A DNA stretch of 59,509 bases, from positions 1-59,509 of the forward strand of contig CAZRTR010000003.1 in the NCBI GenBank assembly GCA_964603095.1, read 5' to 3'. The notes below the pieces were generated by a model. That model was not told the origin of the DNA and did no database searches. It was given only the letters and a program-made list of their open reading frames with translations. The translations under genes were made by a program, and so were the position numbers. Shown here one piece after another: positions 225-42,371 of this stretch; the stretch's first letter is position 1, and each line of letters opens with the position of its first letter. Source of the stretch: an uncultured Planctomycetia bacterium (lineage in GTDB: Bacteria > Omnitrophota > Gorgyraeia > 1-14-0-20-64-10).

Positions 225-287
225 AGTGGGGAAAGAAGGGAAAGAGGAAGCGCTGCGGGCCAGACCTGGGATGTCGGGTGGGGAACA

Positions 288-296
288 TGGTAAAAT
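288..296 (+). promoter_or_regulatory. extended -10-like element TGGTAAAAT
   Basis: Lies 7 nt upstream of ATG 304. The same TGGTAnnnT signature precedes other accessory cassettes in this window. Confidence 0.35.
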
Positions 297-303
297 GGCT
301 GGG

Positions 304-498
304 ATGAGACGACGGACAAGGGTTCTTGCGTTAGATCGGGCGAACGAGTCCCGTGAGATCCAGTTTGAGCTGGATTTCCTGAGGTCTCTGACTATTGCCC
401 AGCGATTCCGTTTGATGCGGAAGAAAACCCGAGAGCTCCTCCAGCTTCTTCAGCACAGTGGACACCGAAGGCCTCCTCAAATTCTTCAAAGAGCATAA
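304..498 (+). CDS. small basic/helical protein, partner of nucleotidyltransferase (cassette 1)
   Basis: 64-aa ORF from an internal ATG of track ORF 226..498. It overlaps the downstream NTase by 41 nt. The same arrangement occurs at 7066 and 40692. Confidence 0.4.
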   Translation: MRRRTRVLALDRANESREIQFELDFLRSLTIAQRFRLMRKKTRELLQLLQHSGHRRPPQILQRA

Positions 499-922
499 GG
501 TCGATTTTGTCGTTATCGGGGCGACCGCCTTCCCGGTTCACGGTTATGCCCGCGCCACCCTCGACATCGACCTGTTCATTCGGCCGGCTCCAACCCATGC
601 CAAGCGGGCCTGGGTTGCTTTAAAGGCGTTCGGCTACGATATGGCCGACATTCCGATGGAGAGTCTTTTGCACAAGAAGCTCTTGATTCGCCAGTACGCG
701 GTGGAGGCCGATATTCATCCATTCGTGACCGGTGTGACATTCGACCGAATCTGGAAGAATAAGGTAGGGGCCAAATTCGGGAAGACAGCGGTCCACTTCG
801 CCTCCCTGGCTGATCTCATTGCTATGAAACGTGCTGCGGGTCGCCCCAAGGATCGGGAAGACCTGAAGTATCTCCTTCGCCTCAGGAAAGCGGAGTCCGA
901 CCTGCGCCGACAGGTAAAATAG
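458..922 (+). CDS. minimal nucleotidyltransferase-fold protein (paralog 1)
   Basis: Contains VVIGATAFPVHGYARATLDIDLF (G-x-D-x-D NTase core) and a C-terminal LIAMKRAAGRPKDREDLKYL motif. Both are shared with ORFs 7268 and 40901. The stop lies 2 nt before ATG 925. Confidence 0.75.
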   Translation: MDTEGLLKFFKEHKVDFVVIGATAFPVHGYARATLDIDLFIRPAPTHAKRAWVALKAFGYDMADIPMESLLHKKLLIRQYAVEADIHPFVTGVTFDRIWKNKVGAKFGKTAVHFASLADLIAMKRAAGRPKDREDLKYLLRLRKAESDLRRQVK

Positions 923-924: not shown

Positions 925-3900
925 ATGTCGATGATCAGACGTCGGGTCGCTGCGATTTTCCTGATCCTTTCCTTATCCTTTCCAGATTCCAGCTACGCCC
1001 TGCGCCAGACCGGGCTGGAGGAATCCCGCCCCACCCGCCAGCAGCTGATCGACTCCCTTACCGGGGGTTTGGAGGAATCAGCGCAAGAGCCGGACGAAGA
1101 TCAACTCCTGGCAGAGGTGGGGAAGAGTTGGCAGTACCGGATCAAGGATGAGAGGGGCCTGCACATCGATGCGCTCGAGGGTGCCCTGGGCGGAAGTAAA
1201 GCCAGAACCCTGCTGCTTCATTCTGCCTTCAAACAGTTCGACGGGGACATCTATCGGCTGCCGCCGGGGCTGTTTGACCTTCCGGTCTGGCAGAGCCCGG
1301 AGACCGGCGCCCTCTACTGGGGTTGGGATACGCTGGCCCAGCTTTCGGATGGTGAAATCCAAGATGCCTTTTCGAACAGCGATTTTGAATCGATTGCGGT
1401 GGTGCATCCAAAAGAACAGCCCCCGCCATCTCCTCCGAAGCAGGAAGCTGTTCTTCCAGCCGTAGGGCCATCGTTTCCTCAAAACAGTGAACCTATACCC
1501 CAGTCCGTCTTGCCGGTGGGACAAGAGCCCAGGCAGGCATCGCCGGTCGATGAGAGGCCGTCTGAGCCAGGCCAGATTAAGGTGAAGGCACCTTCGGCTA
1601 GGGTATCCTACAAACCGGACGATCTGGAACAGCTTTCCTTTTTGGAGCTGGGCGAGGAGATCCTGGATTCGGAGAAGAGCCGCGGGCGCTCTGCGGGGAG
1701 AACCGGGCGGCTATACAAGGGATATCTCCAGGAATTCGAGGGGGACGAGAAGCGACTTCCCGGAGCGGTTGAGAACGACGAGCAAAAGGCACGAAGGGTT
1801 GCCTTGGCTGCCCTGAATGAAGCGAGGCGGTCCCGCCATCTGCCTTCGGTTACGGGGAAGATGCTCGTTGAGAACAGCCGCAATCCCAAGGTGCTGAGGC
1901 AGTTTGAGTTCGTTTTCCGACAGATCGTTTCCAGTGTCTCCAGGGTATATGAAGGACTCCGGTTTGATCGGGAGCAGGGCCTTCCTGCCAGACCAGAGCC
2001 GCCGGAGGGGTCCCGCTCTCCCCAGGAGTATCTGCAAGCGCTAAGGAGCTGGCTCCTCTATGAAGATTGGAAGGAAAGTCATCTGAGTGCCCCTACCTTT
2101 GGCGTTGGATTCGTGGATTTCGGTGCTGACCGTACCTTGGGCGATCCGGTTCCCTTTGGAATCCTTTCGGTACTGGCAGTTCGTCAGATAGGGATGGAGC
2201 CTTCGATCCGCTGTTTCCCGGAGCTTGCCAGGGGATTGGTCGAAAAGGGGGTGACGAAGGTCGAGTATCTCCCTCCGGTTCCAGGGAATCCCCCGGCCTT
2301 GCGGGTCCAGTTCAAAGATCCGATGAGGGATCGCGATACCGCGATGGTGCTTCCCGCTCTGGCTATGGCCGTGCTGAAGGTGCCCCTGCCGGATCTTCCC
2401 TCCCGAGAGGGCCAGAGGGAAGGGGTAGATCTGTCGGATGAGGAGCTTCTTGAGGAAGCCGACCGTTCCATTCGCCATGAGTTGGAATCGGTGGAGTGGG
2501 ATGAGCAGGAGCTCCGCTCACTCGTTTTCACAGAGGATGACCCGTTGGATCAGAGGGTGGCTCGGTTGGAGAAGCTCGTCCGTCTTGCTTTAGAGGGGAA
2601 ACTCCTCCCCCGCTCTGGCTACGACCTTTACTCCGAAGAAGGGAGCCGGCGCTTTGCCCGTTGGCTGGGCCGCACATCCCGAGAGCAAAGGGTCATTCAG
2701 CGGGATCTTAAGATCAAGTTCCAGGATGCCGCTGAGCGGTTGGGTTGGAGACGCCCCCCCGCCACTGCCCAGGTCCAGCAGGAATTGGCCGACCGCTTCG
2801 ATGAGTGGAGCCAGATTCAGCAGGCCTTGCTTCAGCTGGGTGTTCCGGAACGCACAGGCGATCCTCAGGCCGAAAGGAGAGTGCAGCGGATGGTTAAGCG
2901 TCACCTCCTTGATCTGGCCACCCTTGGCTATCTTCCTCTGCTGCGGCTTTTACTGGTGGCCCGAAGCCCGGAGGATTCCTGGCTGCTTTCCCAAGGGGAT
3001 GAGAGGCATCTCTCGAACCGGCTTGAGAAATTTCGTCGTACTCTTCAGGATGCCGGTTCGATTGTCAAAGAGCTGGCCTCTTCGCTGACGGAATCGGACC
3101 GGGCCATCTTCCTGGCTGAGCTGAACCATGCGGTTCTTCGTGCCTTACCTGCCAAGCCCAAGGAGCCGTTTAGGCAGACCACGATGGATGCCGTGCAAGG
3201 GACGTTGGTGCGGCTCAACGCTCAGCTCCTGGGGGCCGATCCGGAGCGGTCCCCTACCGCGCTGATGCTGAGGCGTCAAGAGCGGGATGCCCTGGTGGAA
3301 GCGGTCCGCTCAACGCAGGAACGGATCTGGGAATTGGCCCGCAGTGATATCAGCCGACCCGGAACGGATGAAATGGAGCGTGCCGTCTCCGAGCTGGAAA
3401 CCGCTGCTCGAGAATTGCCGGCCCTCGGGTTAACTCTCTCGCTGGATCCGCCTCCACCGGTTCGACTCGATTCCCCACCGGTGTTCCAGCAGGATCTCAC
3501 TCAACTTCGTTCATGGGTTGTCTCCTCTCTCCAACAGGCGCCGGAGACAGAGCCGGCGGCCGATTTGGCGCAAGCCGGCCTCTACCGGATGCTCCTGGAG
3601 CTGCGGATGCTGGAGGAGATGGGGGATGTCCAGGAAGCATTCCAAAAGAGTCAGGAGGTACTGTCCCGGCTGGGTCCTGCGCAGGGGGAGAAGTTCCTCC
3701 CCATCCGCAATCGAGCGCAGGCCGCCAAGCGTCGTGCCGACCAGCAGGCCCAAGAGGCGGCTTTGCAGCGCCCTTCTTCTCTCCAAGAGCGGGCCGCGGC
3801 GATATTGGGGAGCAGGGAATATCAGACTGCGATTGGAAACAACCGCCTGCTGCAAGAGTTTCTCGGCGCTGTTGCCGAAAACAGAGCGGGGTTCTTCTCA

Positions 3901-6900
3901 CCGGCTAAGCGGAAGCGGTTGGAGAGATTTCTCCGAGGGAAGGGGGCCCGCCTGGCCGAGCCGTTCCAAACCGTCTTAGATCTGCTTTCCGGAACCGAAC
4001 CCCGCGCCGGCCTGGAGGAGCAGGAGCTGAAGAGGTTCAACGCGGATGATCCCACCGGAGGAGCGGAGCAGGCGCTAGCACTGGCCCAAGCGGGGCAGCC
4101 GGCCCTTCTGGTGACCGATCAGACCGATCCATCGTTGATCAGGGACGATCGGATGCTCGTGATGAATCTCCAGATCCGAAACGAAAGTCCTTATGGGGCC
4201 AGACGGTACGTTGGCCGGATGAAGGCCTCTAGGATTGGAGAAGGAGAGTGGGCCTACTTCAAGATCGACTCCACCCTGAAGGGTCCGTGGGTGGAAGCGG
4301 CGAAACAACTGGCGGAGAAGCTCCAGCCGGAGATCCTCCTGGTGGCGCCGGCCAACGTGGCTCAGGGCCGAGTCACTCGTCAGGGAGTGCACGGGTTCCT
4401 CAAGGAGGAGGGTCGTCAGGAGACGTTTGTCCCTCTCCACCAAACGGAGTACGCCGGTTTCTTGGATGGGACACTGACCGAGGCAGGGTCCGATCTAACC
4501 GAATATCTCACCCGGCATCAGATTCGTCCCGTGGTCCATCTTGGGTTTTCGGTAATTGAACGTGGGGTGAAGGATGTGGGGATCTTCCTCCAAGGGATCC
4601 CCTCGGGGGCATGGGTGGTGGCGGATGCGGTGAAGCCGGAGCATCTGGCTGTGTTGGCCCAGGCGGTCAAAGAAACGGATCGTTCCTTCCTCTGCTGCGG
4701 ATCCGCAGGACTTTTCGTTGAACTGGTCAAACCGGATTCTCCGGTTCCGTTGGTCTCCTGGGTGGAACAGCTTCAGACGGCCCGGAGGGGCAGGGGAAAG
4801 ATTCTCGTCTTGGCCGGGTCCCGCAATTCCGTCTCTTTGGATCAGGTGAATCAGGCGTTGCGTGATTTCCCTGATCGGGGGAGCCGAGTCCTGGTGGAGA
4901 CCAAGCCCCTTTTCAGCCGGCGCAAGGGAAGTAGAGAAGGGGTCATCCGGAAGATCCAAGAGGAGGTGCGCCGCGGATGGCGCAAGGGGCAGGGGGTGAT
5001 CCTTCAACTGGACAATTCAATCATCCTTCGGCCCGGCACACCTCAGCAGCAGGCCCTTGGAGAACTTTATCGAGGGCTCATCGGGCCACAAGAGGGGAAG
5101 AATCCGTTGGGGCTCCTGGTCGTCTTTGGCGGCGATACCCTGGATACGGTCTTGAGGGCCTTTCACGCGGGCTACACCGCCAGGGCGGAGGTGACTTACC
5201 GAAGCGGCGAGCCGGCCACCAACGTCTCCTACGGGGAGCTGCTTGCCCCGGATCGGCCCCCTTTGCCGATGGTAGTCAAGTCGGAAGGGTTCGGGCGGCC
5301 GGAGCTTCTTTCGGATCTGTTGATCCAGACCAAGGTCATCGCCACTCCTCGGCTGGCGGTGACGATGGGGGATCCGGCAGGAAGCGGCCCGGAGCTACTT
5401 TGGAGGGCCCTGGTCGAGCAGCCGGAGCTTCTGGAGGAGTCGGATCTGATCGTGGTGGGGGATTCGGCGGTCTTGAAGAGGGCCAAGGAATACTGGGCGA
5501 TCCGGTCCCGACCAGGCAAGAGGTTACGGATCCGACCGATTCAACGGATCGAGGAGGCCGAATTCGGACCTGGAATTCTGAACGTTCTCGATCTGGGAAA
5601 CGTCGATCCGATCCTCTTGGAGCGAAGCTTCGGGCCCGTCGGGATCTCCGATCTGGACGACGAGACACGCCGACACTTTGGGCGGGCGGCGCTCCAGTAC
5701 CTGGATGCGGCGATCGAGTTGGCTTCGGCCGGGAACGTGGATGGCATCGTTACGCTGCCCGTCACCAAGGAGGACATCGCCTTGGTTGAACCCGGTTTCC
5801 GGGGCCACACCGAATACCTGGGGGAGCGGCTGGGCACCTTGAACGGCTCCGGCGAGGTGACGATCGCTTTGATCCACGGCCCCTTGAGAGTCCTTCATGT
5901 GACGACCCACAAGTCCCTGCAAGAAGTGGTCGAGCAATTCCAAGATCCGGCGATCACCGAGCAGATTCTGGAGCGGATTCGGATCGCCGCCCAGATGGGG
6001 AGACGGTATTTTGGATTGGAGAACCCCCGCATCGGAGTGTTGGGGCTGAATCCTCACGCGGGTGAGGGGGGCCTGCTGGGGGAGGAAGACCAGAAACGGA
6101 TCCAGCCGGCGATCGATCTCGCGTTGCAAGAGGGCCTGAACGTAAGCCCCCACCCGGTCCCGGCCGACACCGCTTTTTCTCCCGAGATGCGCGGCCAGTG
6201 GGATTTCCTGATCGCCATGTTCCATGACCAGGGCCACGGACCTTTCAAGACGGTCGCCGGCTTGAAAGGGGTCAACTTCACCGGGAACCTGGCGGTTCCC
6301 CGGATCAGCCCCGATTTTGGAACCGCCCGCAGGGAGGCGTGGAACCGGCAGCGATCCCGCGATCTTTCTCCCCAGGGCGTCGGTGTGGCGATCCGCACCT
6401 TGGCCCAGATGATCGCCGCCGGCCGACAAGTCGACCGCGCCGGGCTCGAGGAGAACCCGATGGATGCGCGGGTGGATCGGGCGTGGGCATGGGCGGCCGG
6501 GGGCCGGCGTCAGCTTCGAGAGGCGGCTCTGGAGGCGTTGAGAGTCGTTGAGTACGTGGCTTTAGAGGGGGTGCCGTTTACCCCTAGGGCGAGAGCCAGG
6601 GCTTGGGGGATCCTTTCGCAGGCGCACGTCCTCTTTGGGCTTTCGGATGCCTCTGTGTTCTTGCCGGCGGTGAGAGTGTCCTGGGGCTTGTCTCTCTTTG
6701 GAATCCGTTCCAGGTGGCTTCTTTCTGCAACCCTCCGGATGTACCATCGAAAACACAATGGCATGAATCCGTCCCGGGTTCTGGCGCAGCGTTGGTTCAG
6801 CGACCCCCAGGCCGGGCTGGAGGAGCCGATGATTCCCTTGCCGATGGGACTCCGGGACCTGTTCGAAGATTACCTTCAAAGCCAGGCCGGGCTGGAGGAG

Positions 6901-6909
6901 GCGGCCTGA
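925..6909 (+). CDS. giant 1,994-aa multidomain protein: signal-like N-terminus, ~1,000 aa unknown region, DUF1537-type acid-sugar kinase, PdxA-like dehydrogenase, C-terminal tail; six xGLEE motifs
   Basis: Uninterrupted 5,985-nt ORF. The N-terminus has RRR followed by hydrophobic AAIFLILSLSF..SSYA. Kinase signatures: ADDPTGG, FKIDSTLKG, VAPANVAQGR. PdxA signatures: GDPAGSGPE, GHTEYL, NPHAGEGG, FHDQGHGP. xGLEE codons lie at 1009, 1063, 4006, 6439, 6811 and 6886. Confidence 0.75.
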   Translation: MSMIRRRVAAIFLILSLSFPDSSYALRQTGLEESRPTRQQLIDSLTGGLEESAQEPDEDQLLAEVGKSWQYRIKDERGLHIDALEGALGGSKARTLLLHSAFKQFDGDIYRLPPGLFDLPVWQSPETGALYWGWDTLAQLSDGEIQDAFSNSDFESIAVVHPKEQPPPSPPKQEAVLPAVGPSFPQNSEPIPQSVLPVGQEPRQASPVDERPSEPGQIKVKAPSARVSYKPDDLEQLSFLELGEEILDSEKSRGRSAGRTGRLYKGYLQEFEGDEKRLPGAVENDEQKARRVALAALNEARRSRHLPSVTGKMLVENSRNPKVLRQFEFVFRQIVSSVSRVYEGLRFDREQGLPARPEPPEGSRSPQEYLQALRSWLLYEDWKESHLSAPTFGVGFVDFGADRTLGDPVPFGILSVLAVRQIGMEPSIRCFPELARGLVEKGVTKVEYLPPVPGNPPALRVQFKDPMRDRDTAMVLPALAMAVLKVPLPDLPSREGQREGVDLSDEELLEEADRSIRHELESVEWDEQELRSLVFTEDDPLDQRVARLEKLVRLALEGKLLPRSGYDLYSEEGSRRFARWLGRTSREQRVIQRDLKIKFQDAAERLGWRRPPATAQVQQELADRFDEWSQIQQALLQLGVPERTGDPQAERRVQRMVKRHLLDLATLGYLPLLRLLLVARSPEDSWLLSQGDERHLSNRLEKFRRTLQDAGSIVKELASSLTESDRAIFLAELNHAVLRALPAKPKEPFRQTTMDAVQGTLVRLNAQLLGADPERSPTALMLRRQERDALVEAVRSTQERIWELARSDISRPGTDEMERAVSELETAARELPALGLTLSLDPPPPVRLDSPPVFQQDLTQLRSWVVSSLQQAPETEPAADLAQAGLYRMLLELRMLEEMGDVQEAFQKSQEVLSRLGPAQGEKFLPIRNRAQAAKRRADQQAQEAALQRPSSLQERAAAILGSREYQTAIGNNRLLQEFLGAVAENRAGFFSPAKRKRLERFLRGKGARLAEPFQTVLDLLSGTEPRAGLEEQELKRFNADDPTGGAEQALALAQAGQPALLVTDQTDPSLIRDDRMLVMNLQIRNESPYGARRYVGRMKASRIGEGEWAYFKIDSTLKGPWVEAAKQLAEKLQPEILLVAPANVAQGRVTRQGVHGFLKEEGRQETFVPLHQTEYAGFLDGTLTEAGSDLTEYLTRHQIRPVVHLGFSVIERGVKDVGIFLQGIPSGAWVVADAVKPEHLAVLAQAVKETDRSFLCCGSAGLFVELVKPDSPVPLVSWVEQLQTARRGRGKILVLAGSRNSVSLDQVNQALRDFPDRGSRVLVETKPLFSRRKGSREGVIRKIQEEVRRGWRKGQGVILQLDNSIILRPGTPQQQALGELYRGLIGPQEGKNPLGLLVVFGGDTLDTVLRAFHAGYTARAEVTYRSGEPATNVSYGELLAPDRPPLPMVVKSEGFGRPELLSDLLIQTKVIATPRLAVTMGDPAGSGPELLWRALVEQPELLEESDLIVVGDSAVLKRAKEYWAIRSRPGKRLRIRPIQRIEEAEFGPGILNVLDLGNVDPILLERSFGPVGISDLDDETRRHFGRAALQYLDAAIELASAGNVDGIVTLPVTKEDIALVEPGFRGHTEYLGERLGTLNGSGEVTIALIHGPLRVLHVTTHKSLQEVVEQFQDPAITEQILERIRIAAQMGRRYFGLENPRIGVLGLNPHAGEGGLLGEEDQKRIQPAIDLALQEGLNVSPHPVPADTAFSPEMRGQWDFLIAMFHDQGHGPFKTVAGLKGVNFTGNLAVPRISPDFGTARREAWNRQRSRDLSPQGVGVAIRTLAQMIAAGRQVDRAGLEENPMDARVDRAWAWAAGGRRQLREAALEALRVVEYVALEGVPFTPRARARAWGILSQAHVLFGLSDASVFLPAVRVSWGLSLFGIRSRWLLSATLRMYHRKHNGMNPSRVLAQRWFSDPQAGLEEPMIPLPMGLRDLFEDYLQSQAGLEEAA
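4036..5340 (+). other. domain region: four-carbon acid sugar kinase (DUF1537) N- and C-terminal domains within the giant ORF
   Basis: aa ~1038-1472. NADDPTGGAEQALALAQAG matches the family's N-terminal DDxTG motif, alongside FKIDSTLKG. The nucleotide-binding half has VLAGSRNSVS...VFGGDT. Confidence 0.65.
5350..6420 (+). other. domain region: PdxA-family (4-phospho-hydroxy-acid) dehydrogenase within the giant ORF
   Basis: aa ~1476-1832 carry the PdxA motifs listed above. The usual D-H-G-T-A is D-F-G-T-A here. Confidence 0.7.
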
Positions 6910-7065: not shown

Positions 7066-7347
7066 ATGAGCGTCGGACGTTCGAAGGTTCGGGTCGGGGA
7101 GCAGGCCGCCCAACGATATCAGGCCTTCAGGGATCTGTTGGATTTCTCTGAAGAGCTGGCCCTGGCCGGAATGAGGTCCCAGGGGCTTTCGGAAGACCAG
7201 GGTTGGCAGGTCTGGCGCCGACGCTGGGCGAAGGCATCTCTCGAACATCAGAAGACCAACCGGAAGGTTGCCAAACTCCTTGCGGCACGGGATAGGGTCC
7301 TCCAGCCCGCTCCACGAAGCGCTCGAGAAGATCGTCGAGCTGCTTGA
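7066..7347 (+). CDS. small protein, partner of nucleotidyltransferase (cassette 2)
   Basis: 93-aa ORF overlapping the NTase ORF. It occupies the same position as ORFs 304 and 40692. Confidence 0.4.
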   Translation: MSVGRSKVRVGEQAAQRYQAFRDLLDFSEELALAGMRSQGLSEDQGWQVWRRRWAKASLEHQKTNRKVAKLLAARDRVLQPAPRSAREDRRAA

Positions 7348-7843
7348 ACGCCGGCGTATCCCCTACATGGTGATGGGAGGGCTGTCTCTCTCCGTCTGGG
7401 GACGTGTCCGGGCGACCCAGGATGTTGATCTGGCGGTGGCGTTGGATCCGGGACAAGAGCCGGACTTCCTCCGGGCGATTCGGAAGCAACATTTTCTTCC
7501 TGCGCCTGCGCGGGCCATGCTGGGCCACCGGCTTCTGGTCTGTCGGTATCTGAAGCCGACTCGAGGATTGCCCTTACAGGTTGACCTCTTCCTTGCGCGG
7601 GGGGAGTATCAACAGCAGGCCCTGGCCCGGGCGGTATCCGTCCGGTTGGGCGCTCGATCTTTCCGGGTCATTGCGCCGGAGGATTTGATTCTGTACAAGC
7701 TCCTGGCCGATCGTCCCATTGACCATCTCGACATCCAGACGATCGTTCAGGAACAGAAAGGCCGGTTGGACAGGAGATATTTGATTCAATGGGCCAGGTC
7801 CCTCCGACTCTCCAGGCGACTGAGTTCCGTTCTAAAGGTCTGA
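7268..7843 (+). CDS. minimal nucleotidyltransferase-fold protein (paralog 2)
   Basis: Contains MVMGGLSLSVWGRVRATQDVDLAV and PEDLILYKLLADRPIDHLDIQTIV, and is clearly homologous to ORF 40901. The exact start is uncertain (ATG 7268 or TTG 7280). Confidence 0.75.
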   Translation: MPNSLRHGIGSSSPLHEALEKIVELLERRRIPYMVMGGLSLSVWGRVRATQDVDLAVALDPGQEPDFLRAIRKQHFLPAPARAMLGHRLLVCRYLKPTRGLPLQVDLFLARGEYQQQALARAVSVRLGARSFRVIAPEDLILYKLLADRPIDHLDIQTIVQEQKGRLDRRYLIQWARSLRLSRRLSSVLKV

Positions 7844-7847: not shown

Positions 7848-8801
7848 ATGGAAGCGGCGAGATCACCGTACATCAAGCATCTCTATGTCTGCGTGAACAG
7901 GCGGGATCCTGGGGTCACCTGCTGTTCGCATGGAGGTGGAGAGGCGATCAAGGAGAGGATAAAGGCCTTTGTCAAAGCCAACGGCTTGAAAGGCAAGGTG
8001 CGGGTCAGCTCCTCCGGCTGCATGGACCTGTGCGCCCAGGGGCCCAACGTGATGGTCACCCCGGACCACCTCTGGTACCACGGGGTCACCCTGGAGGATG
8101 TCGACCGGATCATTGAGGAGCAGCTGGCGCCGCTGGTGAATCAGGGACAGTCCCCTTCGGGGACAGTCCCGTCACCTCATTCCCACATCCGGGCTTTTCT
8201 CCTGGATCTGGGCAACGTTCTGATCCAGTTCGATCACATGCAGGCGGCTAGAACGATCACGGCCAACGCCAAGGCGACCCCGGAGGAGCTGTACCGGATG
8301 TTTTTCGAATCGCCGCTGATCGTCCAGCATGACGAGGGAAGGATCACCACCCGGGATTTCTACGAGGAGCTCAAGAGGATGATTGGGTTTACCCTCTCCT
8401 ACGGCGCCTTCCTCGCCGTTTGGAACGACATCTTCACGGAGAATCAGGAGATGACCGCTTTTGTACGACGGCTGCTGAGCCAATATCCCTGCTTTCTGAT
8501 CTCCAACACGAACCGGCCTCACTTTGAGTTCTGCCGGAAGCGGTTTTCGATCCTGAACGAGATGAACGGCTGGATCCTCTCCTACGAGGTGGGGGCCTTG
8601 AAGCCCAAGCCGATCATCTACCAGCGGGCGCTGGAGATGCTCAGGATTGCCCCTTCCCAGGTCTTCTACATCGATGACCGGACCGATCTGATCGAGGCGG
8701 GGCAGCGGATCGGATTCCAGACGCACCGGTTCACCGGGGTGGAGCCGCTCGTCGAGGAGCTGAAGCAAAGGGGAGTCGGCGGCCTTCCTCGGCTTGGCTA
8801 G
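7848..8801 (+). CDS. fusion protein: thioredoxin-like [2Fe-2S] ferredoxin domain + HAD-superfamily (YihX-like) phosphatase domain
   Basis: The N-terminal domain has Cys in VCVNRRDPGVTCC...GCMDLC. The C-terminal domain has the DLGNV motif I and a HAD-IA-like core. The linker is encoded by a palindromic repeat. Confidence 0.75.
   Translation: MEAARSPYIKHLYVCVNRRDPGVTCCSHGGGEAIKERIKAFVKANGLKGKVRVSSSGCMDLCAQGPNVMVTPDHLWYHGVTLEDVDRIIEEQLAPLVNQGQSPSGTVPSPHSHIRAFLLDLGNVLIQFDHMQAARTITANAKATPEELYRMFFESPLIVQHDEGRITTRDFYEELKRMIGFTLSYGAFLAVWNDIFTENQEMTAFVRRLLSQYPCFLISNTNRPHFEFCRKRFSILNEMNGWILSYEVGALKPKPIIYQRALEMLRIAPSQVFYIDDRTDLIEAGQRIGFQTHRFTGVEPLVEELKQRGVGGLPRLG
8144..8170. repeat. palindromic repeat family A (GGGACAGTCCC), 2 units, translated in frame
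   Basis: The sequence gggacagtcccc-ttc-ggggacagtccc encodes QGQSPSGTVPS in the inter-domain linker. Confidence 0.85.
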
Positions 8802-20159: not shown

Positions 20160-21272
20160 ATGGAACCCTTTATCGCTCAGTCTGTTCCGGTTACCAACGT
20201 CGACCTGGTTTCGCTGATTCCGCTCATCGGTCCAGCCAACCGAGCCGTAGCGCATTATGACGGCCTGCTCTATGGGATCCGGAACCCCCACGTTCTTTTA
20301 TCACCCTTGACGACGCAAGAAGCAGTCCTGTCCTCCCGCATTGAGGGAACTCAGGCGACGCTGGGAGAAGTGCTGAAATATGAAGCAGGTGAAGAGCCGG
20401 CGCAGGAGTCCAGGCGGCAGGACATCCAGGAAATCATCAATTACCGCCATGCCCTGCGCAGGGCGCAAGAGATCCTCAAGACCAAGCCGTTCCATCTGAA
20501 CCTGCTGTTGGAACTGCATGCCATCCTGCTGAACAGCGTGCGCGGTCGAGACAAGGAGCGTGGCCGGTTCCGGACAAAGCAGAATTGGATCGGTCCTCCG
20601 GACTGCCCCATCGAGCAGGCCCGCTTCGTACCGCCGGAACCGATGAGTGTCCCCGGACTGCTGGACAACTGGGAAAAGTATTATCACCGCGAAGAGCCCG
20701 ATGTGTTGGTGCAGCTGGCCGTCCTCCATGCGCAGTTCGAGATCATCCATCCGTTCGTGGATGGCAACGGTCGCATCGGCCGGCTGCTCCTGCCGCTGTT
20801 TCTCTACGAGAGGCGGCTGCTGTCCAAACCGATGTTCTATTTGTCCGCCTACTTCGAACGGCATCGTGACGAATATTACGAGCGCCTCCGCCCTCTCGGC
20901 GCATCGCAGGATGCCTGGAACCAATGGATTGCCTTCTTCTTGAAGGCGGTGTGTGAACAAGCCGATGAAAATACCAAGAAGGCGCGCCAGATCCTTGATC
21001 TCTATGAGCGGTTGAAAGATCGGGTGCGCGAGCTGACCCACTCGCAGTTTGCCGTGCCTTTATTGGATCGGTTGTTCGATCAACCCATCGTGCAGACCAC
21101 CGAACTTGCCCGTCATCGGTCCATGCCGAGCCGCCCGATGGTGATGGTCCTTTTGGGGAAGCTGAGAGCCGCCGGAATTCTGAAAACGGTTCGCCCCGGC
21201 AGCGGCCGCAGGGCCGAGGTGCTGGCCCTGGCCGAGCTCATCAATCTCTGCGAAGGGAGAAAGGTGTTTTGA
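20160..21272 (+). CDS. Fic family protein (AMPylase-type) with N-terminal inhibitory motif and C-terminal wHTH-like region
   Basis: Fic motif HPFVDGNGRIGR. SSRIEG matches the [ST]xxxE[GN] inhibitory helix. Confidence 0.88.
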   Translation: MEPFIAQSVPVTNVDLVSLIPLIGPANRAVAHYDGLLYGIRNPHVLLSPLTTQEAVLSSRIEGTQATLGEVLKYEAGEEPAQESRRQDIQEIINYRHALRRAQEILKTKPFHLNLLLELHAILLNSVRGRDKERGRFRTKQNWIGPPDCPIEQARFVPPEPMSVPGLLDNWEKYYHREEPDVLVQLAVLHAQFEIIHPFVDGNGRIGRLLLPLFLYERRLLSKPMFYLSAYFERHRDEYYERLRPLGASQDAWNQWIAFFLKAVCEQADENTKKARQILDLYERLKDRVRELTHSQFAVPLLDRLFDQPIVQTTELARHRSMPSRPMVMVLLGKLRAAGILKTVRPGSGRRAEVLALAELINLCEGRKVF

Positions 21273-21376
21273 CCAGAACTAAGCAGACTGCACACATCGG
21301 TATGTCTCAGGTCGGCTGAAAGCCGCTTAGACCGGTTCACCGGCAGAAAGATCAGCCCCTGTCAGGGCCTCGCCTC

Positions 21377-21430
21377 CCATCTCCTCGGCTGGGACCCCGC
21401 CGAGCGCCAGCGCCAAATCGCCGCCTACCG
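21377..21430. repeat. 54-bp perfect direct repeat, right copy (displaced glpD 3' remnant)
   Basis: Reads HLLGWDPAERQRQIAAYREEISLAG-stop, compared with the glpD end HLLGWDPAERQRQIAAYRQEISLG-stop. Confidence 0.9.
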
Positions 21431-21648
21431 GGAGGAAATATCTCTTGCCGGTTGATAGCAAATTTCCTTCCAACGGGACCTTTCTTCTGTTACAATTTGA
21501 ATCACTTTACCGTCACCCGTCTGGCTAGGGGGATAGAAGTAGTGGAAGCCGATAACCTGTCCCTCGGTACGCGGTGCCGATTGGGCGCGCGAACTATAAC
21601 TTTGAGTGCCTTATTTTGAACAGGAAGGATGTTGGGAGCCTTCTGCTG

Positions 21649-22563
21649 CTAGCGGATGAACTGTCCTCCCGGTATGTCTCCCCCGGAACTGCTTGGCATG
21701 GTCAAAGGGGCCACTTTTATGGCCCACTCGCAGAAACCGCACTCGCTGTCGGCCGACGGGCATGAGCGCTTGGAAAGCAGATCAACCGCTTCCCTGAAAA
21801 TCTTCCGTGCCCGTTCGGGGTCGGTGTCCACCTTGACCGGATGCATGTGGAAGGTGATCCGGCCCCCGTCGTTCTGCTCGAGAGGATGGTAGAAGACCAG
21901 GTAGGCGCAGCCGGCGGTCTGGTAGCCGTTTTCCTGTAGCAGCAGCGTGTAGATGTTGAGCTGATCCTGGTAGTAGGACGGCGTATCCTCCTTTACGGGG
22001 TAGCCCCGGGTTTTGTAGTCCAGCGGAAGGTAACGGTCCTCCTGAACCAGGCAATCGTCCAGAAGCCCCATGAGAGTCGCCCCGACCTCCTTGTCGGAAT
22101 ACCGCAGGCCCCGGTGGCGGGCACGCCAGAGGTCCAGCAGCTTCTGGTCCGGGAACAGCGTCCCTTCCAGTTTCCCTTCGAGCTCGGGCGGGAGCTTCCC
22201 CAGGACCCGGAACCGGTCGAAGTACTTTTTGATGATGCCGTCCATGCCCCCCGGCAGCGAAGGAAAGATCGTATCGGGCCGGCTGATCCCCTTGACCTTT
22301 TCCAGCCAGAAGCAGCGTGGACACTCCGTAAAGAGACTCAGCGAACTGTAGGAGAGGCAGATCTGCTTTTCGGCCACAGACCGGATACTACCACTCAGGA
22401 GGCGTGGGTGACAACCCGGAGATTTTGCTTGCCCCCTTGGCGCCGGGGGTCTCTTGGGCTGGGACCCCCCCTCCAACGTCAGATCGATTCCTACCGCCAG
22501 GAATGCAGCGCCTGACAGGATGCGTGAGGCGTATAATGTGGGAATACAGGAGGTTTGAGACAT
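21649..22563 (-). CDS. PD-(D/E)XK nuclease, Cas4/RecB-like with Cys cluster
   Basis: Contains CPRCFW...LPLDYK...QLNIYTLLL...CPSADSECGFCEW (1+3 Cys, D..D/ExK, QxxxY). The true start may be GTG 22377. Confidence 0.7.
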   Translation of the reverse strand: MSQTSCIPTLYASRILSGAAFLAVGIDLTLEGGSQPKRPPAPRGQAKSPGCHPRLLSGSIRSVAEKQICLSYSSLSLFTECPRCFWLEKVKGISRPDTIFPSLPGGMDGIIKKYFDRFRVLGKLPPELEGKLEGTLFPDQKLLDLWRARHRGLRYSDKEVGATLMGLLDDCLVQEDRYLPLDYKTRGYPVKEDTPSYYQDQLNIYTLLLQENGYQTAGCAYLVFYHPLEQNDGGRITFHMHPVKVDTDPERARKIFREAVDLLSKRSCPSADSECGFCEWAIKVAPLTMPSSSGGDIPGGQFIR

Positions 22564-22637
22564 GGCGGATGGCGGGTTTTTAGTCAGGTTTGAGGGAAAG
22601 GAACCCCAAAGGTGTTACGCGGTAGAATTCGATTACG

Positions 22638-24113
22638 ATGAGCGGTCCTACGCGATCAACGGAGGAAAAAAGGAGGAGATACCCAAGGGGATCCAGAGGA
22701 TCATTATTGAGGTCGAGGAGACCGGCCTTTGACTTGAAACGCGTCGCCCCCGCTTTTCTGCTGCCCCTCCTCTTGGCAACCGCCGCCTCCGCCCATCCCG
22801 CCGACGTCGAAAACATCCTGCCTGACCGCTACTTTGAAGTCGCACGGAACGAGATCCAACGGGCGGAATCCTCCATCCGCCTCTACATGTACCTGATCGC
22901 CCTTCCGCCGAACCGGCTGAATTCCAAGGTCTACCGCCTGGTAGACGCGCTGGTGGAGGCCAAAGACAGGGGTGTGGACGTTCAGGTGATGCTGGACCGG
23001 AATATTGACTGGAAGGATGAAAGCAACCTCGGTTTCTGGGACTCCGCCGGCAAGAATGCCAGGGCCTACAGTTACCTCCGGGAGAAGGGAATCAGCGCCT
23101 ATTTTGATGACGAGGCGATCTTCACGCACGCCAAGGTGCTGGTGATCGACCGGAAAACCGTGATTCTGGGCTCGGCAAATTGGAGCGAGGCGGCATTGGC
23201 CCGCAACCTGGAAGCCAATGTTCTGATCCGGTCCGAGGAGTTCGCCAAGGAGGTCCTGGAGCGCTTTGAGGGGTTGGAGCTCCACACCCCGGAGGGTGGG
23301 AACTCTGAGACCGTCGCGGTGCCGCAGCCCTTCTTGAGCAGTAAACACCTGTTGGGACGGATGGTGACCGATGCTGATGAACGGGCTTTTGACGCCTACC
23401 TCTTTCTACTAAGGGTCTTCGGCGAGGAAGAGCAAGGGAAAGAAAAGGTTGTGGATTACGAGCCGCTCAAGGTGGCGCTTGGAATTCGGGGCAAGAGCGA
23501 ATGGAATAACAGGCGGGCTGTCAGAAGGGTTCTGGATCGGCTACAGGACAAGTATAGGTTGATCGCCGTCTCTTACAGGCGGGGAGATGAGCCGGCGGTC
23601 TCTCTAAAGGCGATAGAAGGCCGGACCGGGCCAGGCGTCGCTTCAGAGACGGCACCGGTGGAGATTCCCGTCACCTACTGGGAATGGGATTGGAATAAAG
23701 AGCTGAGCTTCGCGGGGAAGGTGATGTACGTTCTGGGGGCTATGTATTCCTCCGCGTCGACGACGGCCCCGAGATGGTTCAGGTCAACGGGCGATCTGGC
23801 GAAGAGGCACGGTTTCACAAGGAGTTTTGTTGAGGATGGATTTATGGACTTGCGGCGGCGTAACCTGGTGGAGGTGGAACCGGGCCGGCTCAACCCGGCA
23901 AACTACAGCGACCGGAAGGCGAACCGGTACGCTCCAAACCCGTTGTACGATCCCAAGGAGCTGGAACAGGCATTCCGCAGACTGGAGGAACGGCATGGAG
24001 CGGAGAAGGTGAAGAAGGCCGCTGGCTACGCTGCGCTGGTTTATGAGGGTAGCGATGAAGATGGGAAGGTGATGAAAGGTGGCGGGTCGACCCGACCCCT
24101 TGGAAATGGTTGA
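22638..24113 (+). CDS. secreted phospholipase D/Nuc-like (single HKD) protein with ~270-aa C-terminal extension
   Basis: HKD motif HAKVLVIDRKTVILGSANWS. Signal-like KRVAPAFLLPLLLATAASAHPA. The probable real start is TTG 22734. Confidence 0.75.
   Translation: MSGPTRSTEEKRRRYPRGSRGSLLRSRRPAFDLKRVAPAFLLPLLLATAASAHPADVENILPDRYFEVARNEIQRAESSIRLYMYLIALPPNRLNSKVYRLVDALVEAKDRGVDVQVMLDRNIDWKDESNLGFWDSAGKNARAYSYLREKGISAYFDDEAIFTHAKVLVIDRKTVILGSANWSEAALARNLEANVLIRSEEFAKEVLERFEGLELHTPEGGNSETVAVPQPFLSSKHLLGRMVTDADERAFDAYLFLLRVFGEEEQGKEKVVDYEPLKVALGIRGKSEWNNRRAVRRVLDRLQDKYRLIAVSYRRGDEPAVSLKAIEGRTGPGVASETAPVEIPVTYWEWDWNKELSFAGKVMYVLGAMYSSASTTAPRWFRSTGDLAKRHGFTRSFVEDGFMDLRRRNLVEVEPGRLNPANYSDRKANRYAPNPLYDPKELEQAFRRLEERHGAEKVKKAAGYAALVYEGSDEDGKVMKGGGSTRPLGNG
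24072..24094. repeat. 23-bp perfect direct repeat, left copy (inside PLD gene 3' end)
   Basis: atgaaaggtggcgggtcgacccg, identical to 24798..24820. Confidence 0.9.
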
Positions 24114-24135
24114 AAGAGCGTGACTCAAGTGGTAT

Positions 24136-24166
24136 CCTATGTATGGTAGTGTGTACCATACATAGG
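24136..24166. promoter_or_regulatory. 13-bp perfect inverted repeat (putative VapB operator)
   Basis: cctatgtatggta-gtgtg-taccatacatagg overlaps the TGGTATCCT -10-like element (24130..24138), 12 nt before ATG 24178. Confidence 0.55.
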
Positions 24167-24177
24167 AGGGTTGACCA

Positions 24178-24381
24178 ATGACGACGAAGATCACCACCTA
24201 TATCGATGAGCAGTTGCTCAAGAAGGCCCTGAAGGTGTCCCGGTCCAAGTCGAAACGGGAGGTTTTGGAGAGCGGCCTGCGTACCCTGTTGGCGGAGGTC
24301 CAGCGCAACACCTTCGTCAGGGAATTTGACCACCTGCGCCTGCGCCTTTCTCCGGAGGAGCTTGCGCGGTCCCGCCGTTAG
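24178..24381 (+). CDS. vapB: type II antitoxin, VapB-like
   Basis: 67 aa with N-terminal TTYIDEQLLKKALK, located 3 nt upstream of a PIN gene. Confidence 0.8.
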   Translation: MTTKITTYIDEQLLKKALKVSRSKSKREVLESGLRTLLAEVQRNTFVREFDHLRLRLSPEELARSRR

Positions 24382-24384
24382 AGA

Positions 24385-24801: not shown

Positions 24802-24820
24802 AAGGTGGCGGGTCGACCCG
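24798..24820. repeat. 23-bp perfect direct repeat, right copy
   Basis: Overlaps the vapC stop codon. Confidence 0.9.
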
Positions 24821-24914
24821 GGAAACGCGGACCGGGGACGAGGGAGATAGCTGATGGAGGCGGACGGGGTTTTTGAGGGGGGCGGGGAATCACCCTTGCG
24901 GAGTGAGATTTTTT

Positions 24915-38892: not shown

Positions 38893-38917
38893 AATGAGTA
38901 GAGAAGAGGAGGAATGG

Positions 38918-39280
38918 ATGGGTGCTGTCCACGTTAAGGTAAAGTTGTTGGGGTTGCCGGACCGCCCAGTTGAGCCGCAAACGGTTGAGGCGCTGGTCGA
39001 TACCGGAGCTACTCTTTCTATTCTGCCAGGAGCGCTGTTGAGGAAAGTGGGTGTTAAATCGCTTCATTCAGTAAGGACCCGGCTAGCGGACGGAACCATT
39101 GTCCGGCGGTCTGTCGGTGAGGCAAGATTAAAACTGAACGGCGAAATCGTCACTACGCGCGTCCTTTTCGGTCAGAAACATGATGCCACCGTCATCGGTC
39201 TGGTCACTCTGGAGAGCTTAGGTCTTACCGTGGATCCTGTCCGCCGCCGCCTCGTCCACACCGATTATCTGATGCTGTAG
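38918..39280 (+). CDS. retropepsin-like aspartic protease (single domain)
   Basis: ALVDTGATLSILP (D-T-G-A catalytic motif) and the later VIGLVTLESLGL. AT-richer than its neighbours. ATG 38894 is an alternative start. Confidence 0.75.
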   Translation: MGAVHVKVKLLGLPDRPVEPQTVEALVDTGATLSILPGALLRKVGVKSLHSVRTRLADGTIVRRSVGEARLKLNGEIVTTRVLFGQKHDATVIGLVTLESLGLTVDPVRRRLVHTDYLML

Positions 39281-39371: not shown

Positions 39372-40634
39372 ATGATCAAGCAAACGAAGATTCAAGCTAT
39401 CCCGATCTGGCTACTCATCTTCACGCTGGCCATCCCGCCTACTTCCGCCCACGCCCTGCGGCACGCCGTTCGCCCTGAGCCTGTCGAAGGGCAGACCCTG
39501 TGCAACATGAACGCCGAGCGTGCCGGCCTCGAGGAGGAGCTCACGCGAGCCCTCACCGGCTCCGCCGGGCTGGAGGAGAAGAAGCGGATCGCGAGGAGGG
39601 ATCTGCTGGCATGGGGCATTGGGGTGGCATCCGGGGTGCCGGCCACGTTGGCGGCCCTGGCGGTCAGAGAGGCCCTGTGGAGGGGTCACTCGACACTACC
39701 GATGGTTCGACTTCCCATCCCCCTGCCCAAGGCGTCTGTCGGAGAGAAGGACCTCCGGGTGAATCTGCCTGAGGTGTTGGCAGGTCGGGTGGCGGTCCCG
39801 TATCTGCTGATCGGTGACCGGTATCAGCCGCAGCCCTCCCTCAAGACCGTTCCGAGCGATGGAGTTGTGACGTTCCGCATCCAATCCGAGGATCCGGAGG
39901 AATTGTACGTTAACTGGTGGAAGGCCAGAGGGATTCGTATCGTCGTCTTTGAGGACCCAAAAGAGGCGCGGAAGGGCAAAGAAGCGATCATTGTCGTTGC
40001 GATTGGAAAACCAACCATTTTTGGACGTGCCTCGGCCGCCATCATCCGGGGCAAGCTGCCTTCTCTATCGGTTGAGCCGGAGGTGACGATTCAGCCGCCC
40101 GCTGGGTTGGAGGAGGTTCCTCGACTGGCCTCAGCCCTCCGGGGTTTCTTCGCCAACCAGCGATTGACTTCCGCCCCTGTTCCCCAAGAAACGTTGACCG
40201 TTGTGGATTTGACGGCGCCGACAGGGGTCTTGTTGGCGCCGGAACTGCCTCCCGGTGTCATCGGAATCGTCCGGCGGGAGGATTATCCGACGATTCTGCA
40301 GGTGGTTTCTGCAGAGCGGGCCCTTCCGAGGCAAAACGAGCATCTCTTCTTCCTTGAAGACTACCCGGATTTCGTCGAGGCGGTCTGGAGCGTTGTTTCA
40401 AGAAGCGGGTCGGATTTGGAGGGGCTGCGGCTCATCACTGGGCGATCGGGTGAGGAGTTAGGCGGTTTGATCCAGCGATTGAGTGGGCAAGGCCTGGAGA
40501 TCCATCTCGTTCGTGTCAAAACGGCGCAGGATATCCTCAAGCTCCTCTGGGTAAACGACCAGTCCCGTTCCGGTCTGGAAGAACTCCTCCAGCGATCCCA
40601 AGCCAACTGGGTTGCCCTGGCCGATTATCTCTAA
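39372..40634 (+). CDS. hypothetical protein with four xGLEE motifs, N-terminal signal-like segment and RR-hydrophobic segment
   Basis: 420-aa ORF. Its N-terminus resembles the giant ORF's (..SAHALRHA vs ..SYALRQT, followed by GLEE motifs). xGLEE codons lie at 39522, 39564, 40101 and 40569. ARRDLLAWGIGVASGVPATLAALA is Tat-signal-like. ATG 39507 is an alternative start. Confidence 0.65.
   Translation: MIKQTKIQAIPIWLLIFTLAIPPTSAHALRHAVRPEPVEGQTLCNMNAERAGLEEELTRALTGSAGLEEKKRIARRDLLAWGIGVASGVPATLAALAVREALWRGHSTLPMVRLPIPLPKASVGEKDLRVNLPEVLAGRVAVPYLLIGDRYQPQPSLKTVPSDGVVTFRIQSEDPEELYVNWWKARGIRIVVFEDPKEARKGKEAIIVVAIGKPTIFGRASAAIIRGKLPSLSVEPEVTIQPPAGLEEVPRLASALRGFFANQRLTSAPVPQETLTVVDLTAPTGVLLAPELPPGVIGIVRREDYPTILQVVSAERALPRQNEHLFFLEDYPDFVEAVWSVVSRSGSDLEGLRLITGRSGEELGGLIQRLSGQGLEIHLVRVKTAQDILKLLWVNDQSRSGLEELLQRSQANWVALADYL
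39468..39492. repeat. hairpin repeat family C (partial), translated
   Basis: gttcgccc-tgagcctgtcgaa-gggc encodes VRPEPVEG, inserted right after the HALRHA segment. Confidence 0.8.
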
Positions 40635-40691: not shown

Positions 40692-40904
40692 ATGGTGAAA
40701 TCAATTCGTCGTTACACCGAGGAGTCGGAGCGTCAACGTGTCCGCCACTTGCAGCAGCTCACCTGCCGAGAATCTGCAGCGATCTTGGAACTCCTCCTTC
40801 GCTCTCGTCTGGCGTTTGAACTCCATTTTGCGGAAGACGACCATCCCATAGCTCTGTCTCATTACCACCGTTTTCATCCGAACAGACGTCGAAAAGCGGC
40901 GTGA
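40692..40904 (+). CDS. small protein, partner of nucleotidyltransferase (cassette 3)
   Basis: 70 aa with a GTGA overlap onto the downstream NTase. Confidence 0.45.
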   Translation: MVKSIRRYTEESERQRVRHLQQLTCRESAAILELLLRSRLAFELHFAEDDHPIALSHYHRFHPNRRRKAA

Positions 40905-41473
40905 AGGCACCCACCCTTGAGGATGTCTACGGAACCTTTCTGGGCGTCCTCCATTCCTCTCGACAGCGCTACCTGGTGATCGGTGCATTGGCCGTGGGAA
41001 TGCTGGGCGAGGCTCGCCTCACGCACGACCTGGATTTCCTGCTGTTCCTGTCCTCGGAGGAGCTTCCCCGATTTCTTCGGCGGGTCAAGCAGCGAGGATT
41101 CCAGTTCGATTCCAAGACGATTCATCAGCACGCCAGCGAAACGGGAGCTTTTCGATTGTCCTATCACGGGGTTCCCGTTGACTGTTTGATGGCGACCACT
41201 TCTCTGGAAGAACAGATGTGGCATCGGTCCAAGAAGCTGCGCCTTCACCGGCGGCTGGCCCATTTCCCTTCTCCTGAAGATCTGATTCTGCTCAAGCTGC
41301 TGCCCGGGCGCCCCAAGGACCTCCTGGATGTGGAGAGCATCTTTACCCGCCGCGGAAAAGGTTTAGATGTGGGGTATCTGAAGAAAACGGCCCAACGGAT
41401 GGCCGATGAGCTTCAAGATGCCCGGATTTGGCACCGACTCCAGCCCCTCTTAAAGTCCGCGAGCTCCCGTTAG
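40901..41473 (+). CDS. minimal nucleotidyltransferase-fold protein (paralog 3)
   Basis: LVIGALAVGMLGEARLTHDLDFLL and PEDLILLKLLPGRPKDLLDVESIF. Confidence 0.78.
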   Translation: MKAPTLEDVYGTFLGVLHSSRQRYLVIGALAVGMLGEARLTHDLDFLLFLSSEELPRFLRRVKQRGFQFDSKTIHQHASETGAFRLSYHGVPVDCLMATTSLEEQMWHRSKKLRLHRRLAHFPSPEDLILLKLLPGRPKDLLDVESIFTRRGKGLDVGYLKKTAQRMADELQDARIWHRLQPLLKSASSR

Positions 41474-42312: not shown

Positions 42313-42319
42313 CGAAGGC

Positions 42320-42362: not shown

Positions 42363-42371
42363 GACGGAGAA

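Follow-up and report, generated by a model that had tools for sequence, protein, structure and literature searches.

The giant gene and its repeated peptide

The stretch of DNA analysed here (the window) consists of 59,509 nucleotides of contig CAZRTR010000003.1 (assembly GCA_964603095.1) from an uncultured bacterium of the Omnitrophota lineage, and close to its 5' end lies a giant open reading frame (ORF; 925..6909, + strand) that codes for a protein built of modules, which has a signal-like N-terminus and, as delimiters, six copies of the short peptide GLEE. The ORF is a single uninterrupted frame of 1,994 amino acids (aa). Two of the GLEE motifs enclose a DUF1537 kinase fused to a PdxA-like dehydrogenase, and it was this fusion (4036-6420), its being embedded in a giant ORF and the signal-like N-terminus that the initial annotation, made from the sequence alone, had pointed out. 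All three were borne out: Pfam and the predicted fold agree on the two enzymes, with Pfam bounds consistent with those positions, the module occupies aa 1033-1839 of the frame, and a hydropathy scan found a Sec-like segment at the N-terminus.

This Sec-type segment (aa 1-26, 925..1002, + strand like all features of the ORF) reads MSMIRRRVAAIFLILSLSFPDSSYA followed by LR, that is, it ends in SSYA just before LR. It is very N-terminal, has its hydropathy peak at aa 8 and carries no helix-breaking charge; the only other 19-residue Kyte-Doolittle windows above 1.5 are at aa 473 and 660-661, both within the folded N-domain described below. A leader ending in [FYH]-A-L-R is kept in relatives, and the leader is also present in a second GLEE gene of the window (ORF 39372-40634) and in the related proteins P0002, P0013, P0015, P0017, P0021, and P0025. 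The conserved signal and the AxA site followed by LR would point to export or N-terminal anchoring of the giant protein. Behind the signal come two leader GLEE motifs (aa 30-33 and 48-51, 1012..1077), a small conserved “bead” (ca. aa 52-165) that aligns with residues 1127-1291 of P0012 (E = 1e-9) and, as read from the sequence, a Pro-rich linker (ca. aa 165-225; bead and linker together 1078..1599). The N-domain follows (about aa 226-1028, 1600..4008), with a mixed alpha/beta core and a long helical region. The next delimiter (aa 1029-1032, 4009..4020), which has a predicted local distance difference test score (pLDDT) below 50 in both structure models, stands immediately 5' of the kinase (SBD_N, aa 1040-1264, and NBD_C, aa 1294-1461; 4042..5307), assigned by Pfam, fold, and motifs. 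The dehydrogenase (aa 1476-1838, 5350..6438), assigned by Pfam, TIGR00557, and sequence and fold matches in the PDB, is closed immediately 3' by the delimiter at aa 1840-1843 (6442..6453), in a segment (aa 1839-1868) with pLDDT <50. The C-terminal tail (aa 1844-1994, 6454..6906) contains the last two motifs (6814-6825 and 6889-6900) and ends in AGLEEAA; it had no family match in Pfam, NCBIfam, or PADLOC and no homologue in the family set, and its prediction confidence is low.

The six motifs start at aa 30, 48, 1029, 1840, 1964, and 1989, most of them preceded by Ala, where 0.09 would be expected (P ca. 8e-10). Four more are found in ORF 39372-40634 (0.02 expected) and none in the 14,916 residues encoded by the rest of the window's genes. 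Along similar lines, GLEE is confined to the giant ORFs in the related loci L001 and L002 when all six frames are checked. Synonymous variation is seen at the motif's Gly, Leu, and Glu codons in the window, and more so in L001, so that it is the peptide on which selection acts. The same variation rules out a repeat or recombination site at the DNA level as the origin of GLEE; a 22-nt direct-repeat family (D1) is the motif itself in GC-biased codons. Every GLEE covered by the two AlphaFold 2 (AF2) models falls in a segment with pLDDT <50, that is, predicted to be disordered, and the motifs at aa 1029 and 1840 bracket the well-predicted kinase-PdxA module exactly.

Two further features of the motif DNA and of the protein ends were seen. 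An 18-nt inverted repeat, 89% complementary, connects the DNA of a tail GLEE (6813-6830) with 7292-7309, at the 5' end of the downstream nucleotidyltransferase gene, where the antisense would read SGLED; it may be due to chance. The last two residues are -AA, -QA, or -MA in most full-length members of the family (AGLEEAA, LIIQA, AKAA, AQAA; endings taken from P0002, P0015, P0016, P0019-P0022, P0024, P0025, P0027, P0034, and window aa 1989-1994), which calls to mind C-termini of the ssrA-like or PDZ-binding kind.

The second GLEE protein (39372..40634, +) has 420 aa, the same signal-ALR-GLEE-GLEE leader and four motifs in all, and a 99.8% identical copy of its ORF exists on another NCBI contig. 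PADLOC and NCBIfam gave no match for the leader or for this protein. After its leader motifs, at aa 70-100, it has the segment KKRIARRDLLAWGIGVASGVPATLAALAV, which has the look of a twin-arginine signal or of another membrane segment, something odd to find downstream of a Sec-like signal. Directly 5' of the gene lies a retropepsin-like aspartic protease with a DTGA motif (38894..39280, +; PF13650/PF13975; 53 bits with TIGR03698, below the cut-off), which has no signal peptide and is the sole DTGA ORF across the window, L001, and L002. A retropepsin as conserved partner of GLEE proteins was ruled out, no such ORF being found near the L001 and L002 relatives.

The ca. 1,030 residues upstream of the kinase had been described as unrecognisable; what was found there instead is a conserved family domain. 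An exhaustive HMMER search of 1.84 billion proteins recovered 26 representatives of the N-domain (counted at 50% identity clustering), 17 of them with E <1e-30. A word-indexed homologue search with the full giant protein retrieved one relative, and none with alignment A1, while scans of public collections gave one locus each, L003 being nearly identical to L001. The AF2 model of the N-domain has a mean pLDDT of 84.7 and a predicted TM-score (pTM) of 0.68, and neither the fold (best E 1.1 in the PDB and 0.27 in BFVD, a viral collection) nor the sequence (Pfam, NCBIfam, PADLOC) was matched. Most of the relatives are themselves giants of 2,000-6,894 aa in which the place of the N-domain varies and the modules around it are unrelated: PAS-histidine kinase, receiver, protein isoaspartate methyltransferase (PCMT), alpha/beta hydrolase, and tetratricopeptide repeat (TPR) modules. 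One or two modules of ca. 90 aa with the pattern A.VSYRGTN....GF.P.SE...DP.....L..KMAWL, without Pfam match and S1/OB-fold-like by eye, were also seen in P0002, P0013/L002, and P0021 (e.g., L001 ca. 5600-6900).

The peptide that separates these modules varies from one lineage to another. The closer relatives P0002, P0013/L002, P0014, P0015, P0017, P0020, P0021, and P0025 use [A/S]G[L/M/A]EE, and in other members different peptides are over-represented: R[S/A]E[V/L/A]R, of which P0019 has as many as 20 copies, [A]ASLG, AMAK[R/K]P, and LQTQPLQ. These peptides too adjoin the edges of Pfam domains, as in P0016, where RSEVR is found 20 residues after the receiver and 4 before the N-domain. A homologous module bracketed by non-homologous, lineage-specific peptides is what would be expected if the motif co-evolves with a reader acting in trans.

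The kinase-dehydrogenase module and the neighbouring genes

In the kinase half, Pfam SBD_N (PF07005) scores 92.8 bits over aa 1040-1264 (cut-off 25), and NBD_C (PF17042) 24.3 bits over aa 1294-1461, below its cut-off of 28.3 while covering profile positions 1-167 of 168; the same profile gives 59 bits on the module of P0014. The motifs ADDPTGG, DSTLKG, GSAGL, GGDT, and KSEGFG (DDxTG among them) are present, with two deviations, DSTL[R>K]G and K-x-[G>E]-G-F-G. In the other half Pfam PdxA (PF04166) scores 226.8 bits over aa 1507-1807 (cut-off 27), and the best sequence matches in the PDB are 2hi1, 4jqp, and 6e85 (E ca. 1e-52), structures of PdxA2, PdxA, and D-threonate-4-phosphate dehydrogenase. 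In the AlphaFold model of aa 1000-1994 the module is folded with confidence, its PdxA part matching 4jqp, 2hi1, 6e85, 1yxo, 1r8k, and 1ps6 (E 4e-24 to 2e-20, TMt 0.79-0.86) and its kinase part the DUF1537 structures 1yzy, 3dqq, and 5dmh (TMt 0.57-0.68). None of the NCBIfam equivalog cut-offs was reached: 230.4 vs. 290.35 bits for TIGR00557 (pdxA), 186.4 vs. 583 for NF002891 (D-threonate 4-phosphate dehydrogenase PdxA2), 68.8 vs. 450 for DtnK (D-threonate kinase), and 30.5 vs. 350 for OtnK (3-oxo-tetronate kinase). The substrate can therefore not be named. Judged from its motifs and predicted fold the module is real and looks intact, and aa 1033-1839 would form a self-contained pair of enzymes, a four-carbon acid-sugar kinase of the DUF1537 type and a PdxA/PdxA2-type dehydrogenase, the latter probably a metal- and NAD(P)-dependent 4-phospho-acid-sugar dehydrogenase. 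This would be the familiar sequence of phosphorylation by the kinase and oxidative decarboxylation.

Such a fusion and its pathway are already known and ordinary. DUF1537 kinases and PdxA2 are an acid-sugar catabolic pair (Zhang et al., 2016, PNAS, as cited in PMC9997740). Stand-alone DUF1537-PdxA fusions exist (P0003-P0006, n = 4, 709-779 aa), with the same order of SBD_N, NBD_C, and PdxA, 29-39% identity over up to 92% of the module and catalytic motifs in common with it; JGI labels two of these proteins “4-hydroxythreonine-4-phosphate dehydrogenase”. They are free-standing and cytoplasmic-looking, whereas the window's module stands between GLEE delimiters in a signal-bearing protein of 1,994 aa, and all four keep DHGT where the window has DFGT, with an Arg-rich sequence in place of FDIAGKG. 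The closest relative with an embedded module is P0014 (metagenomic, 2,835 aa), which has the N-domain and a GLEE-bracketed kinase-PdxA module with 55% identity over 826 aa, an alignment that begins at GLEE and ends at AGLEE in both proteins. P0014 differs in retaining the His (SPDHGTA), in having eight GLEE motifs and in its extra modules, which include TPR-containing regions and other unassigned stretches.

That the window has D-F-G-T-A in place of the D-H-G-T-A of PdxA, as noted in the initial annotation, is correct: F1798 is encoded in frame by TTT (6316..6318, +), and His occupies this position in all five comparators (P0014 and P0003-P0006). The sequencing error that the annotation allowed for around 6300-6360 did not turn up, the frame being continuous and TTT at least two base changes away from CAT or CAC, beyond a single miscall. 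A frameshift or miscall behind DFGTA is ruled out, as the sequence downstream aligns in frame with P0014 and PdxA2.

The reading of the changed residue as a metal ligand does not hold. Along chain 1r8k, the PdxA of Salmonella, the His of DHGTA maps to residue 297. The metal histidines of the E. coli and Salmonella enzymes are reportedly H166, H211, and H266 (UniProt P19624; Sivaraman et al., 2003), with D247 and D267 as active-site aspartates and K274, N283, and R292 presumably binding the substrate phosphate; counted along 1r8k, these numbers fall on the expected residue types. The three histidines have their equivalents in the window (H166 in GHTE, H211 in NPHAGE = H1711, H266 in FHDQG = H1767), and the other residues are kept as well (D247 = D1748, D267 = D1768, K274 = K1775, N283 = N1784, R292 = R1793). 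Judged from these residues, both the metal site and the site for the substrate phosphate are intact, the DHGTA His is no metal ligand, and a loss of metal binding is not supported. In other words, the supposed metal-site defect does not exist, and with it goes the original ground for interest in this locus.

The ca. 30 residues after DFGTA had also been noted as divergent, and this, together with the changed His, had been read as a sign of lost or altered catalysis. The stretch, ARREAWNRQRSRD in the window, is common to P0014 (ARQEAWNRDRDVS), and its divergence is no decay, because it is a feature of the clade shared with a protein that keeps the His. It also resembles the AFDIAWTGKA of PdxA2-type enzymes. 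Both proteins have [F/H]GTAR[R/Q]EAW(NR), with Arg or Gln where Asp is typical of NAD-specific enzymes. We take DHGTAFDIAG to be equivalent to the H339-G-T-A-P-K344-Y345-A-G loop of isocitrate dehydrogenase (IDH) and to HGSAPDIAG of isopropylmalate dehydrogenase (IPMDH). In IDH and IPMDH these loops bind the adenosine of NAD(P) and contain the determinants of NAD/NADP specificity, and the changed His would then belong to a homologous loop. By this analogy the change from His to Phe, together with the clade-specific GTAR[R/Q]EAW, may alter cofactor binding or preference while the metal is retained. Altered cofactor handling is a plausible consequence, and the replacement of Asp by Arg or Gln in the loop makes it the more likely one.

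The rest of the window is an ordinary chromosomal stretch, with the futalosine pathway, the pyruvate dehydrogenase complex, complex I, pyruvate:ferredoxin oxidoreductase (PFOR), and glycerol kinase with glycerol-3-phosphate (G3P) dehydrogenase. Within complex I a single ORF of 835 aa (42309-44816) fuses NuoB (20 kDa), NuoC (30 kDa), and NuoD (49 kDa), followed by NuoI-like and NuoH genes. The giant gene is flanked on both sides by cassettes resembling toxin-antitoxin (TA) pairs, upstream a small ORF (226-498) overlapping a DUF6036/DUF2204 nucleotidyltransferase (458-922; together 226..922, +), whose stop codon is 2 nt before the ATG of the giant ORF, and downstream a small ORF (7066-7347) overlapping a second DUF2204/DUF6036 nucleotidyltransferase (7268-7843; together 7066..7843, +). 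A third one, a small ORF (40692-40904) and a DUF6036 nucleotidyltransferase (40901-41473; together 40692..41473, +), is 3' of the second GLEE gene, so that all three paralogous cassettes directly adjoin the two GLEE genes. A functional tie between them was rejected: each nucleotidyltransferase has its own small upstream ORF, and the cassettes are absent beside the relatives. Co-location in accessory patches of low GC content at third codon positions (GC3) is the simpler reading. The two GLEE genes have a GC3 of 0.70-0.71 against about 0.80-0.88 for most annotated housekeeping genes, and values of 0.58-0.72 are shared by the GLEE genes, the TA-like cassettes, and the retropepsin, Fic, and PLD genes, which suggests an accessory nature or a recent acquisition for all of these. 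Fic and PLD belong to a low-GC patch (0.565-0.589; 20160-26448) of defence- or mobile-looking genes: a SoFic-type Fic protein (20160-21272, PADLOC E = 9e-110), a Cas4-like PD-(D/E)XK protein (21649-22563, -), a PLD/DrmC-like nuclease with a signal (22638-24113), an ORF that by eye is PIN-like (24385-24801), and, at 25654-26448, an NTP_transf_8 protein. The TA-like cassette 3' of the giant gene is directly followed by a HAD-family hydrolase (7848-8801) whose N-terminus is weakly similar to a thioredoxin-like [2Fe-2S] ferredoxin (E = 7e-4, below the cut-off).

What the delimiters may be

The placement of the motifs at module boundaries and their replacement by other peptides in other lineages speak for a specific reader of some kind, and we infer that GLEE motifs are recognition sites. 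The protein would consist of independently folding modules strung together and separated by the lineage-specific [A/S]-G-L-E-E in disordered linkers, with the delimiters read at the protein level by a partner acting in trans, most probably a protease that would cut the precursor into separate modules, much like a polyprotein. That the ORF codes for an exported or anchored modular protein with an intact two-enzyme module, whose GLEE motifs are read by such a partner, is a reading to which we give an even chance. The chance of proteolytic processing as such we put at rather below even. The larger picture, a bacterial polyprotein system in which Sec-exported giant precursors, made up of cytoplasm-type enzymes and a carrier domain of novel fold, are cut at a lineage-specific pentapeptide by a co-evolving protease and the modules are released outside the cytoplasm or in another cell, is a tentative one and, as it stands, somewhat unlikely.

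Several points weigh against this reading. No protease partner was identified, and the GLEE-type proteins have no recognisable internal peptidase family, HExxH or DTGA; the sole protease nearby (38894-39280) is without a signal peptide, and no equivalent of it lies near the L001 and L002 relatives. The motif close to the protein end (AGLEEAA and stop, 2-8 residues from the C-terminus) fits docking better than cleavage. Enzymes that depend on ATP or NAD(P) have no obvious use outside the cytoplasm. As to the module, some reduction of activity has to be allowed for, given that DSTL[R>K]G, K-x-[G>E]-G-F-G, and H>F are unique changes at otherwise invariant positions, and the presumed role of His297 in cofactor binding goes back to a supposed homology with the HG[ST]AP loop of IDH and IPMDH. 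An internal zincin (HExxH) as the processing protease was also considered and set aside, as it occurs only in some distant giants and not in the GLEE-type proteins.

Among the alternatives, the one that survives best is that GLEE is not cut and serves for docking, the motifs acting as multivalent “stickers” that bind a partner, for instance a component of the envelope, a scaffold or a receptor domain, with the whole protein as a membrane-tethered, multi-module scaffold. The disordered linkers with 4-8 motifs per protein would suit it, as would the motif that all four full-length GLEE-type proteins examined have 2-17 residues from their C-terminus, and no dedicated protease was found. However, no candidate binding partner was identified either, and boundary placement with unrelated peptides in other lineages is equally expected of protease sites; docking is, in our view, unlikely, though it deserves serious consideration.

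A polymorphic effector or toxin-like system, with a conserved N-terminal delivery region, exchangeable C-terminal cargo, GLEE as a demarcation (comparable to VENN in CdiA) where cassettes would be swapped and perhaps set free, and the enzymes acting inside another cell, appears improbable. One and the same N-domain is indeed followed, after the motif, by different cargo in P0001, P0002, P0013, P0014, and P0015. A signal peptide combined with enzymes that require ATP or NAD(P) would make sense for such a system, and the GLEE genes have a GC3 below that of their housekeeping neighbours and adjoin TA-like cassettes. However, the cargo is housekeeping-like (acid-sugar kinase/PdxA, PCMT, response regulator, alpha/beta hydrolase), without known toxin domains, and neither known delivery domains nor PADLOC or toxin matches were found. 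No immunity-like gene is consistently downstream, the genes that follow in the window being those of the nucleotidyltransferase cassettes. Besides, the L001 and L002 relatives are found in a conserved housekeeping neighbourhood (RimO/MiaB-like upstream and CinA downstream, with RecA beyond CinA in L002), and the window comes from a metabolically complete genome.

That the PdxA domain is a pseudoenzyme that has lost its metal ligand and its catalysis, as first supposed, we consider very improbable. The change from His to Phe does sit in a motif invariant in the five comparators, and of the changes unique to the window two more (V>F and P>A) cluster with it on the same strand and two others fall in the kinase motifs. 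However, in the six-sequence alignment the window has eight unique changes at otherwise invariant columns, no more than the comparators (7-18 each), the changed His is residue 297 while the ligands 166/211/266 and D247, D267, K274, N283, and R292 are kept, and the module is 55% identical to a His-bearing counterpart, with a fold that is predicted confidently. There is no sign of general decay in the sequence; with three of the eight changes clustered at F1798, some functional shift is possible. Finally, an artefact, i.e., an assembly chimera or several genes merged through sequencing errors, can hardly be credited: the exact giant protein is carried by one assembly only, but the independent metagenomic P0014 has the same N-domain, kinase-PdxA module and GLEE brackets, related giant ORFs exist in P0002, L002, and L003, GC3 is fairly even along the ORF (0.61-0.82) without abrupt break, and the kinase part has no start codon of its own upstream of the DDxTG motif.

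To return to the reading as a modular protein whose delimiters are read in trans, we are dealing with a very rare family in which normally cytoplasmic, unrelated enzymes are concatenated behind a signal peptide with their boundaries marked by a short peptide. Were the motifs cleavage sites, they would represent a new mode of protein production or delivery and a new recognition code between protease and substrate; were they docking sites, a multivalent scaffold of a new type. In either case the hypothesis lends itself to a direct test, as the site is known to the residue and the 420-aa paralogue with its four sites makes a tractable substrate.

Comparison with known systems

To our knowledge, motif-punctuated polyproteins are not known as a general strategy of bacteria. 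A full-text search of the literature for AGLEE, RSEVR, RAEVR, and related strings gave nothing relevant, and a preprint on long proteins of Omnitrophota makes no mention of motifs, linkers, or cleavage. The punctuated giant family, its leader and its N-domain matched no curated family or solved fold and have no description in the searchable literature.

Short peptides at the border between a conserved N-terminal region and variable C-terminal modules are familiar from polymorphic toxins, where VENN in CdiA and PxxxxDPxGL in Rhs proteins act as demarcation motifs. GLEE is similar in this position. Unlike VENN and the Rhs motif it is also found in the leader and recurs at module boundaries, no toxin/immunity pair was recognised with it, and the motif differs between lineages while the flanking N-domain stays homologous.

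Viral polyproteins are processed by retropepsin or 3C-type proteases at sites whose sequence co-varies with the lineage. The GLEE giants resemble them in having short sites between independently folding modules, and a retropepsin-like gene adjoins the second GLEE gene. In contrast to viral polyproteins, the GLEE giants are encoded in a cellular chromosome, among genes for pyruvate dehydrogenase, complex I, and PFOR, and the neighbouring protease lacks both a signal peptide and a conserved counterpart near the relatives.

Giant ORFs with modules released by cleavage of linkers have reportedly been described for the MARTX toxins, by Satchell, and for the polyvalent proteins of phages and conjugative elements, by Iyer, Aravind and colleagues in 2017. 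Like the GLEE giants, these string unrelated enzymatic modules together in one ORF. They share neither sequence nor fold homology with them, and no RTX repeats, cysteine protease domain, or zincin domain were detected in the GLEE-type proteins. The cargo of the GLEE giants is housekeeping-like, their linkers carry a strict, lineage-specific pentapeptide, and cleavage is putative. Giant multi-module proteins are the known kind to which the punctuated family belongs.

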